A stretch of 11,688 bases of DNA from a virus (Duplodnaviria; Heunggongvirae; Uroviricota; Caudoviricetes). The position numbers and the translations under genes were made by a program. Location of the stretch: IMG/VR virus record IMGVR_UViG_3300011888_000006. The stretch is one strand, 5' to 3'. Shown here in pieces: positions 1 through 9,431 of the stretch; position 1 is the stretch's first letter; every line of letters starts with the position of its first letter. The notes under the pieces were generated by a model. The model was not told the DNA's origin. It made no database searches and was given only the letters and a program-made list of their open reading frames with translations.

Positions 1-66
1 TTTTTTGATTTCAGAATTAGCCTGACGGGCAATGCTGCGAAGGGCGTTTTCCTGCTGAGGTGTCAT
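1..66 (-). CDS. Hypothetical protein, 5' end only (first 22 codons MTPQQENALRSIARQANSEIKK; gene runs off the window start)
   Basis: Minus-strand ATG at 66..64 overlaps the TGA of the upstream micro-ORF (ATGA arrangement); frame stays open to position 1. No recognisable family from 22 residues. Confidence 0.35.
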   Translation of the reverse strand, partial: MTPQQENALRSIARQANSEIKK

Positions 67-146
67 TGAACAAGTCCCATGTCGGCAAGCATAAGCACAC
101 AGAATATGAAGCCCGCTGCCAGAAAAATGCATTCCGTGGTTGTCAT
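63..146 (-). CDS. 27-aa hydrophobic micro-protein (MTTTECIFLAAGFIFCVLMLADMGLVQ), putative single-pass membrane peptide
   Basis: Below the ORF-track size cutoff. Its ATG (146..144) overlaps the methyltransferase TGA and its TGA (65..63) overlaps the next ATG, so it is sandwiched by two ATGA couplings. Hydrophobic core of about 20 residues. Confidence 0.35.
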   Translation of the reverse strand: MTTTECIFLAAGFIFCVLMLADMGLVQ

Positions 147-700
147 GCAGCCTCCCGACGGGCAAGAATCCTTGAGCCGAACGCCATCAACTCTCCACGA
201 TCAACGGTCGTAAAGTGGCAGTGTGTACGGGGGTATGGGTGCCAGATAATGAGCATCGAGCCTTTATTATTTCCACTGACGGGTTTCTCAGTGAGTGGGT
301 TAATAAATGCCAGTCGTCCTGCCGTGATGAATCTGACCTCACTGGCGGTTTGTATCGCTTCATGAAACCATCCGACAGATGTGTCAGCAGGCAATAACAT
401 TACACATCCCACACTACTGAATTTGTTTTCAGTGGCTGCCTTTTTCACAAAAGGGGAAATATTGCTGTATGGTGGATTCAACCAGACATAACCAGAGGCA
501 TATCCCATTGCTTCAGGCCATGAAGTGGTTAATGTGTTCTGCTCCTGTGAGATAAAAAGCCGACATAGTCGGTTTTTTTCGCTGGCGGCAGCATCAAGTT
601 GAAAAACGAACTCTGCATTAAGCGCAGCAAAAATCTCTGGTGGTGTACGCCAGCTGTCGCGATGTTCGGCAGGAGTATTGCTTCCGGTGAAATCAGTCAT
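143..700 (-). CDS. Phage-type DNA N6-adenine methyltransferase (Dam-like orphan MTase)
   Basis: 185-aa ORF with the catalytic NPPY motif (WLNPPYS) and an N-terminal WRTPPEIF segment typical of phage Dam-family methyltransferases. Sits downstream of exo in the leftward operon. Confidence 0.85.
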   Translation of the reverse strand: MTDFTGSNTPAEHRDSWRTPPEIFAALNAEFVFQLDAAASEKNRLCRLFISQEQNTLTTSWPEAMGYASGYVWLNPPYSNISPFVKKAATENKFSSVGCVMLLPADTSVGWFHEAIQTASEVRFITAGRLAFINPLTEKPVSGNNKGSMLIIWHPYPRTHCHFTTVDRGELMAFGSRILARREAA

Positions 701-3497: not shown

Positions 3498-4187
3498 CTA
3501 CCCATGCTTCCTATATGTCTGCGGCATGCTCCCAATAACCTTACCGAAGATGAACACCCGGTTCATCTCGTCTTTCTCGATCGGGTCCCACGGTGAGTAG
3601 CTTTTGTTATCAGAGATGACCAGCAGCTTATCCTTCATCATTTGCAGGCGCTTTACATGGGCTGTGTCGTCGTACAGAAACGCATAGATACCATCACCGT
3701 CGAAAGATTTAACTGTGATATCAACGAACAGCAGATCACCTGGTTCGATCGTTCCTGACATGCTGTCACCACGCACGTTAATGATGCGGATATTTTCCGC
3801 CTTCCTACCATCGAACATGTGACGAGCATCGTCAAACGAGTACTCAACCGAGCGTAGAACTTCTACAAACTCACGGTTGATGACTCCCGGCCCAGCACTG
3901 ACTTCTATATCAAGAACGTCAATCTTGAAGTATTTGGAATGGCTGACAGTTGATTGTATTGGTTGCACTGTACTGTCTGACATATTTCCAACGCCAGAAG
4001 ATAACCATTCTGCGCGCACACCCAAAGCGTTCGCGATCTCCACGATTTTAGTTGTTTGATTAGCTTTCCCTGTTTCGATTTTCTGAATAGCAGCCTGGCT
4101 AACCCCGACCAAATCCCCAAGCGCCTTTTGTGTAAGGCCTCGCGCTAATCTGGCTTCTTTAAGTCTTTCTGAGAGTGTTGTTTTCAT
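3498..4187 (-). CDS. cI: CI-like prophage repressor (N-terminal HTH, C-terminal S24 LexA-like autopeptidase)
   Basis: HTH segment LTQKALGDLVGVSQAAIQKIE, then an Ala-Gly site (VSAGPG), a GDSM serine motif and a HVKRL lysine, the LexA/CI self-cleavage signature. I place the start at the MKTTLSERL ATG (4187) rather than the track's 4253 start, because a TTGATG-17-TACATT promoter ends 6 nt before it. Confidence 0.85.
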   Translation of the reverse strand: MKTTLSERLKEARLARGLTQKALGDLVGVSQAAIQKIETGKANQTTKIVEIANALGVRAEWLSSGVGNMSDSTVQPIQSTVSHSKYFKIDVLDIEVSAGPGVINREFVEVLRSVEYSFDDARHMFDGRKAENIRIINVRGDSMSGTIEPGDLLFVDITVKSFDGDGIYAFLYDDTAHVKRLQMMKDKLLVISDNKSYSPWDPIEKDEMNRVFIFGKVIGSMPQTYRKHG

Positions 4188-4291
4188 AGTCCAAATGTAC
4201 AACCAAGGTTTTATTCCATCAAACGAAAATGGTTGTTGACTAAAAACAACCATAGTTTTAATCTTGATTCAAATTAACCACGGAGGTTGTT
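4188..4291. promoter_or_regulatory. Immunity switch: divergent pRM-like and pR-like promoters with operator palindromes
   Basis: 25-bp perfect palindrome ATGGTTGTT-GACTAAA-AACAACCAT at 4229-4253, overlapping a rightward TTGACT -35 (4236-4241). Leftward TTGATG (4217-4222) -17- TACATT (4194-4199) ends 6 nt before the repressor ATG. Confidence 0.6.
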
Positions 4292-4522
4292 ATGAACCCA
4301 GCTATCAAAACAGCGATCAATATCGTTGGTTCACAAAAGAAACTGGGCGCTGCTTGCGAAGTTTCACAGCAGGCCGTCTATAAGTGGCTTCACAACAAAG
4401 CAAAGGTATCCCCTGAACATGTCGGCAGCATTGTTACGGCTACTGGTGGAGTAGTGAAGGCATACCAGATTCGCCCGGATCTTCCGAAGTTGTTTCCACA
4501 CACCGAAAAGAACGCAGCTTAA
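4292..4522 (+). CDS. cro: Cro-like small HTH regulator (YdaS/Cro family)
   Basis: 76 aa, first gene of the rightward operon. HTH segment LGAACEVSQQAVYKW; GGAGG 6 nt upstream of the ATG. Confidence 0.8.
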   Translation: MNPAIKTAINIVGSQKKLGAACEVSQQAVYKWLHNKAKVSPEHVGSIVTATGGVVKAYQIRPDLPKLFPHTEKNAA

Positions 4523-4591
4523 ATTTCCATTTCACGCTCTTTAACAATAAGCAATCAACTTAACAGTCAATTCAAACTAAAGGAGTCAATT

Positions 4592-5131
4592 ATGCAACCA
4601 CTTACATACCAACAGACTAGCGGATTTAGCCCGACTGCGGTGATAAATCGTTCTCAAACAAAACAGGTGCCAGGCCACGAAAAAATCCGTGATGCCGTCC
4701 GCGCCTGGTCGGCTGTAGATAATCAGGATGTCGTTGCCACACTCATTGTGAATGAGTATCGGGAGCAGGGCGGCGGCACCATCGATTTCCCTGATGATGT
4801 CAGCCGTGCACGCCAGAAGCTGTTCCGCTTCCTCGATAACAAATTCGATTCTGAAAAATACCGAAATAACGTGCGTGAACTGACCCCGGCAATTCTGGCG
4901 GTACTACCGCTGGAATATCGCGGTTACCTGGTTGAGCAGGATAGCTTCATGGCTAGGTTGGCTGAAATGGAAAAGGAACTCAGTGAGGCAAAACAGGCTG
5001 TCATTCTCAACGCACCACGCCACCAGAAACTGAAGGAAATTAGTGAAGGTATTGTGTCGATGTTTCGTGTGGACCCAGATCTGGCTGGTCCATTGATGGC
5101 GATGGTTACTACCATGCTGGGGGCGATATGA
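4592..5131 (+). CDS. YdaT-family protein in the cII position (likely CII functional analogue)
   Basis: 179 aa directly after cro, with AGGAG 7 nt upstream. Segments EYREQGGG and LTPAILAVLP resemble Rac YdaT as I recall it; family assignment is from memory only. Confidence 0.6.
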   Translation: MQPLTYQQTSGFSPTAVINRSQTKQVPGHEKIRDAVRAWSAVDNQDVVATLIVNEYREQGGGTIDFPDDVSRARQKLFRFLDNKFDSEKYRNNVRELTPAILAVLPLEYRGYLVEQDSFMARLAEMEKELSEAKQAVILNAPRHQKLKEISEGIVSMFRVDPDLAGPLMAMVTTMLGAI

Positions 5132-7260: not shown

Positions 7261-7277
7261 TGAAACAGGTGAGTTGA

Positions 7278-7312
7278 GTTCAAACTGTAGTACAATTCTC
7301 TCCAGTTTGAAC
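7278..7312. repeat. 10-bp perfect inverted repeat (GTTCAAACTG-N15-CAGTTTGAAC) between ren and emrE
   Basis: Read directly from the sequence. Lies 16 nt upstream of the emrE ATG, at the left edge of the AT-rich insertion. Confidence 0.3.
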
Positions 7313-7327
7313 AGGAAAGAATATGTT

Positions 7328-7660
7328 ATGAACCCTTATATTTATCTTGGTGGTGCAATACTTGCAGAGGTCATTGGTACAACCTTAATGAAGTTTTCAG
7401 AAGGTTTTACACGGTTATGGCCATCTGTTGGTACAATTATTTGTTATTGTGCATCATTCTGGTTATTAGCTCAGACGCTGGCTTATATTCCTACAGGGAT
7501 TGCTTATGCTATCTGGTCAGGAGTCGGTATTGTCCTGATTAGCTTACTATCATGGGGGTTTTTCGGCCAACGGCTGGACCTGCCAGCCGTTATAGGCATG
7601 ATGTTGATTTGTGCCGGTGTGTTGGTTATTAATTTATTGTCACGAAGCACACCACATTAA
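7328..7660 (+). CDS. emrE: EmrE, small multidrug resistance (SMR) efflux transporter
   Basis: 110-aa translation MNPYIYLGGAILAEVIGTTLMKFSEGFTRLWPSVGTIICYCASFWLLAQTLAYIPTGIAYAIWSGVGIVLISLLSWGFFGQRLDL... matches E. coli EmrE from memory. The track's longer 7274 start is probably not used. Confidence 0.95.
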   Translation: MNPYIYLGGAILAEVIGTTLMKFSEGFTRLWPSVGTIICYCASFWLLAQTLAYIPTGIAYAIWSGVGIVLISLLSWGFFGQRLDLPAVIGMMLICAGVLVINLLSRSTPH

Positions 7661-7904
7661 AAATAATTTCTTTTAAAAGACTGCAATATGGCGGTTCATA
7701 TCTTTACATGGGCCGCTTTTGTTAATGTTTTTAGTTTTTGTGTATTCTTTTGTGCCTTCAAGATTATTGCGTAAGCAAATTGCAATACGATTATTGTTGT
7801 ATATTCAAGATAGTGTGATCGTAATTGTCTTTTTAAATAAAAATTAAACAAAAATTATATCTCACCACTAAGGTTTATAAAAGCATACGTTAGCAGGTGT
7901 CACC

Positions 7905-9431
7905 ATGAAAAAAGCCATAGCATATATGCGATTTTCATCACTAGGTCAGATGTCTGGCGACTCATTAAACCGACAGAGAAGACTTATTGCTGAATGGTTA
8001 AAGGTAAATAGTGATTATTATCTTGATACCATAACATATGAAGATTTAGGATTAAGTGCATTCAAAGGAAAGCATGCACAATCAGGAGCTTTTTCGGAAT
8101 TTTTAGATGCTATAGAGCATGGTTATATATTGCCAGGAACTACATTGTTAGTTGAAAGTCTGGACAGACTTTCAAGAGAAAAAGTCGGTGAAGCGATTGA
8201 ACGTCTGAAATTGATTTTGAATCACGGTATTGATGTTATAACTCTTTGCGACAATACAGTCTATAATATTGACTCTTTGAATGAGCCATATTCATTAATA
8301 AAAGCCATACTTATAGCACAAAGGGCAAATGAAGAAAGCGAGATAAAGTCAAGTCGGGTTAAATTATCATGGAAGAAAAAACGGCAGGATGCACTGGAAT
8401 CAGGTACGATTATGACGGCGTCTTGTCCGAGATGGCTCTCCTTAGATGACAAAAGAACGGCTTTTGTTCCAGACCCCGACAGGGTGAAAACTATTGAGCT
8501 AATTTTTAAACTCAGGATGGAAAGGCGCTCATTGAATGCAATAGCCAAGTATTTAAATGATCATGCTGTAAAGAATTTCTCAGGAAAAGAAAGTGCATGG
8601 GGGCCTTCTGTAATTGAAAAATTATTAGCGAATAAAGCTCTGATAGGTATATGCGTACCTTCATATCGTGCAAGAGGGAAAGGGATAAGTGAAATCGCTG
8701 GCTATTATCCCAGAGTCATATCAGATGATTTGTTTTACGCTGTACAGGAAATTCGGTTGGCACCTTTTGGTATTAGCAATAGTAGCAAGAATCCTATGCT
8801 AATAAATCTACTTCGAACAGTTATGAAGTGTGAGGCTTGTGGTAATACCATGATTGTTCATGCGGTATCTGGAAGTTTGCATGGCTATTATGTTTGTCCG
8901 ATGAGAAGATTACATCGATGTGACAGGCCATCAATAAAGAGAGATTTGGTTGATTATAATATCATTAATGAATTGCTTTTTAATTGTAGCAAAATTCAAC
9001 CAGTTGAAAACAAGAAAGATGCTAATGAAACGTTAGAGTTAAAAATTATTGAGCTTCAGATGAAAATTAATAATTTAATCGTTGCATTGTCTGTCGCGCC
9101 TGAAGTTACCGCTATAGCAGAGAAAATAAGACTATTAGATAAGGAATTACGAAGAGCTTTGGTATCATTGAAAACTTTGAAGAGTAAAGGTGTAAATTCA
9201 TTCAGTGATTTTTATGCTATTGACTTAACCAGTAAAAATGGACGAGAGTTATGCCGTACACTTGCCTATAAAATATTCGAAAAAATCATAATTAATACGG
9301 ATAATAAAACCTGTGATATCTATTTTATGAATGGCATTGTTTTTAAACACTATCCTTTAATGAAAGTAATATCCGCCCAGCAGGCGATAAGTGCTCTCAA
9401 ATATATGGTTGATGGTGAGGTTTATTTTTGA
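7905..9431 (+). CDS. ybcK: Large serine recombinase (YbcK-like)
   Basis: 508 aa. N-terminal resolvase-type motif AYMRFSSLGQ with the catalytic serine, then a recombinase domain and a Cys-rich zinc ribbon (CEACGNT...YYVCP...HRCD). Strongly AT-rich coding sequence compared with the flanking genes. Confidence 0.85.
   Translation: MKKAIAYMRFSSLGQMSGDSLNRQRRLIAEWLKVNSDYYLDTITYEDLGLSAFKGKHAQSGAFSEFLDAIEHGYILPGTTLLVESLDRLSREKVGEAIERLKLILNHGIDVITLCDNTVYNIDSLNEPYSLIKAILIAQRANEESEIKSSRVKLSWKKKRQDALESGTIMTASCPRWLSLDDKRTAFVPDPDRVKTIELIFKLRMERRSLNAIAKYLNDHAVKNFSGKESAWGPSVIEKLLANKALIGICVPSYRARGKGISEIAGYYPRVISDDLFYAVQEIRLAPFGISNSSKNPMLINLLRTVMKCEACGNTMIVHAVSGSLHGYYVCPMRRLHRCDRPSIKRDLVDYNIINELLFNCSKIQPVENKKDANETLELKIIELQMKINNLIVALSVAPEVTAIAEKIRLLDKELRRALVSLKTLKSKGVNSFSDFYAIDLTSKNGRELCRTLAYKIFEKIIINTDNKTCDIYFMNGIVFKHYPLMKVISAQQAISALKYMVDGEVYF

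Follow-up and report, generated by a model that had tools for sequence, protein, structure and literature searches.

A 27-codon open reading frame between two ATGA junctions

We analyzed an 11,688-nucleotide (nt) stretch of a Caudoviricetes genome, IMG/VR record IMGVR_UViG_3300011888_000006 (hereafter the window), at whose left edge a 27-codon open reading frame (micro-ORF) is squeezed between two longer genes. Positions 1-2313 of the minus strand form one tightly packed operon, and this end of the window holds the tail of a lambdoid pL operon, the "exo-xis" region, made up of bet, exo, orf60a, a DNA methyltransferase gene, the micro-ORF and orf61 (Table 1). The micro-ORF begins at the ATG inside an ATGA shared with the methyltransferase stop (the methyltransferase ends GCA-TGA) and finishes CAA-TGA, this TGA being part of a second ATGA whose ATG (66-64) opens orf61. 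Its protein is identical to the product of phage lambda 30925-31008, minus strand (NC_001416). Taking the evidence below together, we consider that 63-146 is probably a genuine protein-coding micro-gene of the exo-xis region in lambda-family pL operons, and not an appendage of the methyltransferase.

The original prediction had described both overlaps and the peptide, and ORF calls and translation reproduced all three. It had also held that two consecutive 4-nt overlaps are unlikely by chance, an argument that proved weaker than claimed: 4-nt overlaps occur at 4/6 junctions of the operon (bet/exo, exo/orf60a, methyltransferase/micro-ORF and micro-ORF/orf61; the orf60a/methyltransferase overlap is 8 nt), and when the 76-nt spacer between the two ATGAs was dinucleotide-shuffled, the micro frame stayed open 46% of the time. 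The double-ATGA geometry alone is suggestive, not decisive, and it is the comparative evidence that carries weight. The third gene, which the window cuts off, could be followed in relatives, where it is the lambda-family gene orf61; the full-length product there has 71 amino acids (aa), and this 71-aa form matches phrog_303 (E 4.7e-36).

The predicted single-helix character of the peptide is supported by its Kyte-Doolittle hydropathy. Its best 19-residue mean is 2.33, the highest among the 40 window ORFs of 25-40 aa, and a value matched by 0.12% of composition-matched open shuffles. A 21-residue stretch, CIFLAAGFIFCVLMLADMGLV, averages 2.42, a hydrophobic run of the length (about 19-21 residues) usual in single-pass transmembrane peptides. 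The micro-ORF is ignored by RefSeq, Pfam, PHROGs and NCBIfam, and the NCBI Prokaryotic Genome Annotation Pipeline (PGAP) leaves a 76-nt gap without annotation at this position in thousands of genomes. In nr and UniProt the peptide is present solely as "hypothetical protein" (for example, A0A0A2SGE8), and the peptide string is absent from searchable full-text papers. It is likewise absent from the supplements of a RIBOseq small-gene study of E. coli O157:H7 Sakai, in which the cells were uninduced and the pL operon was repressed. Inspection by eye found no in-frame slippery heptamer that could fuse the peptide to Orf61 by programmed frameshifting.

Table 1. Features of the pL operon at the left end of the window (SD, Shine-Dalgarno sequence)
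Feature	Coordinates	Strand	Remarks
orf61, first 22 codons	1-66	minus	MTPQQENALRSIARQANSEIKK...; gene cut by window edge; identical to relatives' 71-aa protein
ATGA overlap, micro-ORF stop TGA / orf61 start ATG	63-66	minus	GTGA in 39 related loci
Micro-ORF, 27 codons	63-146	minus	ORF call and translation; product MTTTECIFLAAGFIFCVLMLADMGLVQ
Rival start ATG of "extended" 93-aa orf61	130-132	minus	other frame through the micro-ORF; SD -2.6 kcal/mol
ATGA overlap, methyltransferase stop TGA / micro-ORF start ATG	143-146	minus	also the mosaic joint
Phage N6-adenine DNA methyltransferase, 185 aa	143-700	minus	orphan; in lambda orf63 slot
GGGAGG Shine-Dalgarno sequence	151-156	minus	4 nt upstream of micro-ORF ATG, within methyltransferase 3' end
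orf60a (DUF1317)	693-854	minus	8-nt overlap with methyltransferase start; 4-nt overlap with exo stop
exo (lambda exonuclease)	851-1531	minus	start ATGA-coupled to bet stop
bet (RecT family)	1528-2313	minus	upstream member of pL operon
gam	2319-2615	minus	upstream of bet

Substitution patterns and start signals point to a coding gene

To compare substitutions, we pooled viral, metagenomic and genomic loci anchored outside the 84 nt, obtaining 334 loci in 31 haplotypes. Disruption of the frame in close homologues had been proposed as the observation that would speak against a gene; the check came out for the ORF, with start, stop and frame kept in 31 haplotypes over 334 loci apart from a few exceptions attributable to recombination (L009), insertion sequence (IS) insertion (L109) or deletion (L252), and one start/stop mutant (L239). 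In the micro frame, synonymous changes make up 13/26 of all distinct variants, where 25% would be expected (p=0.006), compared with 6/26 in the extended-orf61 frame (25% expected, p>0.6) and 6/26 in the third frame (24% expected, p>0.6). A cleaned set with orf63 as control served for a common-variant comparison. The synonymous share was 8/12 for the micro-ORF (p=0.003), 11/26 for orf63, whose product has a nuclear magnetic resonance structure (p=0.037), and 16/24 for orf61 (p=2.5e-5), against 25% expected in each case, and none of the off-frames was enriched for synonymous variants. Not one of the six commonest variants, each found in 39-134 loci, changes an amino acid in the micro frame. The most diverged allele carries seven changes, five of them silent third-position changes and two replacements (A21S and D22G), and every replacement observed in the micro-ORF (F>L, I>V, V>I, A>S) keeps the hydrophobic character.

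The start signals agree with this picture. Pairing of the micro-ORF start with the anti-Shine-Dalgarno sequence was calculated at -10.3 kcal/mol, the strongest of the operon starts tested; among 214 minus-strand ATGs of the window the 5th percentile lies at -7.3 and the median at -2.4 kcal/mol. Where orf63 precedes the micro-ORF, the corresponding value is a moderate -5.1 to -5.6 kcal/mol. These patterns support the earlier idea that the micro-ORF may be translated and coupled to its neighbours, and on sequence grounds there is very probably a true gene here, with a tiny membrane peptide as its product.

Could the 27 codons be translated just so that ribosomes reinitiate on orf61, with the peptide itself functionless? 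The orf61 ATG is weak (-3.9 kcal/mol) and overlaps the micro-ORF stop in an ATGA; in 39 loci orf61 starts at a GTG within GTGA, which fits reinitiation after termination; and an orf61 variant that lacks the micro-ORF carries a better Shine-Dalgarno sequence of its own (-5.6 kcal/mol). A relay would need just a start, a stop and a length, however, and amino-acid-level purifying selection in the micro-ORF is as strong as in the flanking genes. The uniformly hydrophobic replacements argue in the same direction, as does lambda, whose micro-ORF is intact though its orf61 is truncated by a frameshift. We judge a relay with a functionless peptide unlikely.

It is quite unlikely that the micro-ORF is a chance open frame and that the real gene is an extended orf61, either of 93 aa from window position 132 or in the form of lambda's 61-aa ORF. 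That frame is open, and it is annotated in many records, among them lambda orf61 (30839-31024), H0081 of VT2-Sakai, vb_24B_7c of Phi24B and the 93-aa members of phrog_303. One locus (L009) has an upstream gene ATGA-coupled to exactly this frame, and the frequency with which shuffled spacers stay open is also in favour of a chance frame. Against this reading, the extension shows no synonymous bias (6/26 overall and 1/12 among the common variants), the common polymorphisms inside it being replacements there (G>R, T>A, M>V and H>Y), and the Shine-Dalgarno pairing of its start is no better than that of a random ATG. A TGA lies just upstream of the window-132 ATG in 134 loci; lambda's annotated orf61 start is therefore not usable there and not general. 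PGAP now starts orf61 at the short ATG (window 66). An AlphaFold2 model of the 93-aa form has a predicted local distance difference test score of 46-55 for residues 1-20 and 74-91 for residues 21-90, few of the aligned sequences carrying the extension, and a review found no consistent structure for orf61 residues 1-23, with only 24-93 folded (PMC8614690).

The micro-ORF travels with orf61 and not with the methyltransferase

A tblastn search with the peptide, which the original prediction had suggested as a conservation check, retrieved 176 phage records, lambda (30928-31008) included, with at least 80% coverage in 175/176 and at least 99% identity in 138 records. No peptide homologue below 90% identity was found by tblastn in phages, save one chance-level match (E=5). 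In complete E. coli genomes, the micro-ORF DNA is present in 3142/5426, at up to 5 copies per genome, whereas the arrangement with the methyltransferase occurs in 244/5426 and in one phage. The records nearest to the window are Escherichia phage PhiR30_1, at 99.1% over 900 nt, and, at 99.9%, prophages that lie next to icd in E. coli, where they are integrated. In most related phages a 900-nt query aligned over 39% of its length, in two pieces flanking the methyltransferase.

Among 85 distinct contexts, the gene upstream of the micro-ORF is orf63 (DUF1382) in 69, the methyltransferase in 14 and something else in 2. In ev243, VT2-Sakai and lambda, orf63 fills the slot and is followed by the 84-nt micro-ORF with an ATGA at both ends. 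When methyltransferase and orf63 contexts are compared, the sequences are unrelated up to the ATGA and identical downstream of it. Each of the two unrelated upstream genes has its end exactly at the ATGA of the micro-ORF, and the exchange thus left a clean mosaic joint at a gene boundary. The methyltransferase has replaced orf63 precisely there, as an interchangeable cassette and not as the micro-ORF's partner, and the micro-ORF and orf61 form an old, widespread pair that normally follows orf63. The micro-ORF was always followed by orf61, save in one deletion remnant (L252), and orf61 is also found without the micro-ORF.

This distribution bears on the proposal, made in the original prediction, that methyltransferase, peptide and third gene form one module for anti-restriction or exclusion, or a toxin-like peptide with a partner. 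In favour of it, coupling among the three ORFs is tight in the window, their arrangement is unchanged in the 244 E. coli genomes and one phage, and by size and hydrophobicity the peptide is similar to type I toxins. The peptide and orf61 are, however, far more often found with orf63 upstream, the methyltransferase family is mostly located elsewhere in phage genomes, and the joint lies exactly at the gene boundary, as in ordinary lambdoid mosaicism. An antisense promoter scan gave one plus-strand promoter-like site touching the region (140-169, 9 of 12 matches); with 3 such sites in total against 1.5 +/- 1.1 in shuffles, this is not clearly above chance. We found at the locus no antisense or overlapping small RNA gene with its own promoter and no independent toxin mRNA with a regulatory 5' untranslated region (UTR), the ORF being embedded in the pL operon. 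There was also no stable RNA fold and no Rfam match, and the defence-system search with PADLOC returned only "orphan methyltransferase". A functional trio centred on the methyltransferase is thus not supported, the single-module reading is largely refuted by the distribution, and we regard it as very improbable.

As little probability attaches to an accidentally open stretch that codes for nothing, either a spacer or an RNA element such as a terminator, a processing site or a small RNA, a reading that the PGAP gap would suit: we rejected an RNA element at 63-146 on a folding energy like that of shuffles (z=0.10), no Rfam family and no terminator-like site within 63-146, and the variation follows a triplet, third-position pattern.

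Exceptions and variable contents of the orf60a-orf61 slot

In L109 (1-1803, one E. coli assembly), an IS66-family transposase is inserted inside the micro-ORF. L252 carries a deletion reaching int, L239 has lost the shared stop/start, and in three loci the micro-ORF is one codon shorter at its 3' end. Such exceptions show that the ORF is dispensable and can be lost, not that it is non-coding. In another arrangement, the ATGA of a diverged orf63 (78% identity) leads straight into an unrelated soluble protein of 71 aa in place of orf61, without the micro-ORF.

Several side observations concern the same slot. Across relatives (L009 683-1716; L108 741-1716; L352 1201-1604), the position between orf60a and orf61 holds orf63, the methyltransferase, a 250-aa protein of no known kind or a 251-aa protein in which a DGQHR motif was seen by eye only; given these varied contents, the slot is a site of variable cargo. 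Through the insertion in L109, a 100-aa "orf61" arises whose N-terminus is foreign (P0039, a cluster of 125 sequences). Six 89-aa database proteins were noted (P0116, P0118, P0120, P0121, P0122 and P0126); the sequences of P0116, P0120 and P0121 are in-frame fusions of Orf63 (DUF1382) to the peptide, which arise from small changes at the ATGA junction. These fusions are either sequencing errors or natural membrane-anchored variants of Orf63. Scanning genome contigs added little diversity, as the matches were mostly lambda DNA contaminating unrelated assemblies. The contigs L010-L023, some of about 48 kb, carry lambda's frameshifted orf61 at 100% identity under assembly labels such as Shewanella, Bradyrhizobium, Pseudomonas, Kitasatospora and Oceanobacillus, among others, and are almost certainly lambda-DNA contamination.

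The methyltransferase is an orphan Dam-family enzyme

The Dam-like identity given to the methyltransferase in the original prediction was confirmed. Against Pfam PF05869 "Dam" the protein scores 190.5 bits (cut-off 28.1; E 2.3e-56), covering profile positions 1-168 of 169. Against TIGR01712, the NCBIfam equivalog for phage N-6-adenine-methyltransferase, it scores 165.6 bits (cut-off 97.05), and its catalytic (D/N)PP(Y/F) motif is NPPY at residues 75-78 (window 478-467). Its best PADLOC match is "orphan methyltransferase" (E 8e-32), and no cognate restriction endonuclease adjoins it, the neighbours being orf60a (DUF1317), the micro-ORF and orf61. No solved relative was detectable by sequence.

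The PF05869/TIGR01712 family includes the Dam enzymes of phages T1, HP1 and VT2, and its characterized members methylate adenine in GATC. The window's enzyme shares with phage orphan Dam-family enzymes the full-length profile matches, the NPPY motif and the absence of an adjoining restriction enzyme. It differs in location: relatives are present in 1811 phage records, and those of lambdoid and Shiga-toxin phages (46.6% identity) sit in the nin region adjoining ninE, whereas here the gene occupies the orf63 slot within the exo-xis region. We read it as an ordinary orphan Dam-family cassette in a variable slot, which presumably protects or marks phage DNA.

Evidence weighing against a membrane micro-protein

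Several observations run counter to a genuine gene for a membrane peptide. All homologues share at least about 91% DNA identity, so that the substitution test rests on about 26 variants, some of them metagenome singletons that may be sequencing errors. The peptide contains no K, R or H; E5 and D22 are its only charges, for a net charge of -2, and no flanking basic residues fix its orientation under the positive-inside rule. The absence of basic residues is unusual for a membrane anchor and leaves the topology undefined. Pfam, PHROGs, NCBIfam and PADLOC hold no family model for the peptide. Some orf61 genes do without the micro-ORF: the lineage P0046 (344 members) lacks it and follows the 250-aa gene, and in L009 (Escherichia sp. 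E1V33) the 5' end has been replaced, leaving the micro frame without an ATG and only the extended frame startable, the latter fed by the ATGA of a different upstream gene. A review that cites the lambda ribosome-profiling study of Liu et al. 2013 lists just two additional ORFs for this region, of 7 aa and 31 aa (PMC8614690). None of the region is needed for lambda to form plaques (PMC10695390), and the phenotypes of the frameshift and deletion mutants described below could equally stem from polar loss of orf61 translation.

Published orf61 mutants alter the micro-ORF

The window shares its gene order with the lambda and Shiga-toxin phage exo-xis region (orf60a-orf63-orf61-orf73-ea22), with 95-100% identity to lambda, 933W and VT2-Sakai; the matching genes are exo, orf60a and then the micro-ORF and orf61, orf63 being replaced by the methyltransferase here. 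In the exo-xis studies from the Wegrzyn and Donaldson laboratories, the micro-ORF lies within what is called orf61, its 84 nt being read as the 5' part in another frame.

In lambda itself, a frameshift within an A-run disrupts orf61 (L005 413-725; lambda 30712-31024, minus strand). The orf61 frame ends ...SEIKKSQTAVSG at a stop, the conserved C-terminal 60 residues continue in another frame, and the micro-ORF upstream is intact. By its sequence, lambda orf61 looks like a pseudogene, and this truncation makes the micro-ORF the more plausible functional target in lambda. Separately, L005 321-416 (lambda 30620-30715, minus strand) contains a 31-aa ORF, MNMKSKIIRELQAPFLLFAFTLKRINQQFRD, ATGA-coupled to the end of the orf61 C-terminal frame. 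This ORF is probably the "orf2313" that the review attributes to lambda ribosome profiling, and the 2013 profiling study may already have seen the micro-ORF.

We mapped the published alleles onto this revised gene structure. Bloch et al. 2014 made a lambda "orf61" frameshift by deletion of the C at position 30957, and it delayed phage development after induction with mitomycin C or H2O2 in a plasmid assay (PMC4195576). Position 30957 belongs to micro-ORF codon 18 and lies upstream of the ATG that truly starts orf61; with the frameshift, the peptide becomes a read-through product of 42 aa, and the ATGA is bypassed. The lambda delta-orf61 allele, which removes lambda 30971-30889 (PMC4699033), takes micro-ORF codons 13-27 together with the orf61 start and about its first 13 codons. 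In Phi24B, delta-orf61 removes the annotated homologue vb_24B_7c (PMC6213356); since the 93-aa frame of vb_24B_7c starts inside the micro-ORF, this deletion should take most of the micro-ORF too. The phenotypes in question are prophage induction timing, host survival, lysogenization frequency and adsorption. We advance tentatively, as a possibility that we think doubtful, that the peptide and not Orf61 is the effector of these pro-lytic "orf61" phenotypes in lambda and the Shiga-toxin phage Phi24B, acting through a target in the host inner membrane.

Neighbouring genes in the window

Beyond the window edge, the nearest records continue with the 71-aa orf61 homologue, genes for a TraR/DksA (orf73) and a DUF4222 protein, xis and int. 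Many orf61 proteins (clusters P0008, P0011, P0043, P0046 and others) bear the NCBI name "cell division protein ZapA", a name for which we found no Pfam or NCBIfam support and which, judged by these profile searches, is probably a propagated misannotation.

Further into the window, the immunity region (3498-5131) has an S24/HTH repressor gene (3498-4253, minus strand) facing a YdaS-like Cro gene (4292-4522), followed by a YdaT-like protein (4592-5131); Pfam labels the YdaS- and YdaT-like families "toxins". At 7274-9431 on the plus strand, genes for an EmrE-like small multidrug-resistance protein (PF00893, E 3.3e-35) and for a 508-aa large serine recombinase are placed between replication gene P and the nin genes (NinB-like, NinE, YbcO and RusA). 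This cargo is that known from the cryptic prophage DLP12, here in an apparently complete lambdoid prophage.

A proposed role for the peptide and its relation to known systems

Our preferred reading, a membrane micro-gene paired with orf61, suggests the following sequence of events. The micro-ORF would be transcribed from pL within the delayed-early left operon, and ribosomes would reach it through its own Shine-Dalgarno sequence and by termination and reinitiation at the upstream ATGA, coming from orf63 or the methyltransferase. The 27-residue, single-helix product would insert in the inner membrane, while ribosomes ending at the second ATGA or GTGA would reinitiate on the weak-Shine-Dalgarno orf61, a form of relay translation. 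More speculatively, the peptide might modulate a host membrane component and add to the pro-lytic effect credited to orf61. Most speculative are the suggestions that it could be a non-essential accessory factor tuning lytic development, and that it could account for at least part of the lambda and Phi24B "orf61" mutant phenotypes.

Enterobacteria encode small single-pass inner-membrane proteins that modulate larger membrane proteins, such as MgrB, AcrZ, MgtS and KdpF. The peptide is like these in size (27 aa), in having one hydrophobic helix, in having been missed by gene callers and in being encoded in an operon; it differs in showing no sequence similarity to a known family and in having no basic flanking residues. 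By this analogy, it may be the product of an overlooked small membrane-protein gene of the same general kind. Type I toxin peptides such as Hok, TisB, Ibs and DinQ are also short and very hydrophobic, but the micro-ORF has no antisense RNA gene, promoter of its own or regulatory 5' UTR and is coupled inside a long operon. Classic translationally coupled ATGA junctions are those of trp operon gene pairs, with which the micro-ORF shares a 4-nt stop/start overlap, here at both ends, and a weak Shine-Dalgarno sequence on the downstream gene. The middle cistron here is, by contrast, just 27 codons long and may be both product and relay.

Lambda is the best-studied temperate phage, and no part of its early programme is less understood than the exo-xis region, which in Shiga-toxin phages has an influence on prophage induction. 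If this ORF is indeed a gene, the accepted gene lists of lambda and of thousands of E. coli prophages lack a conserved membrane peptide, and the 93-aa and 61-aa "orf61" models used in annotation, PHROG 303, structural modelling and protein expression have a spurious N-terminus, which may explain the insoluble product that has been reported. The published orf61 frameshift and deletion mutants would then be micro-ORF or double mutants, and their phenotypes would need reassigning. Should the peptide prove to be the effector of those phenotypes, a hidden membrane micro-protein of lambda would bias the outcome of lysis versus lysogeny and, therefore, Shiga-toxin release.

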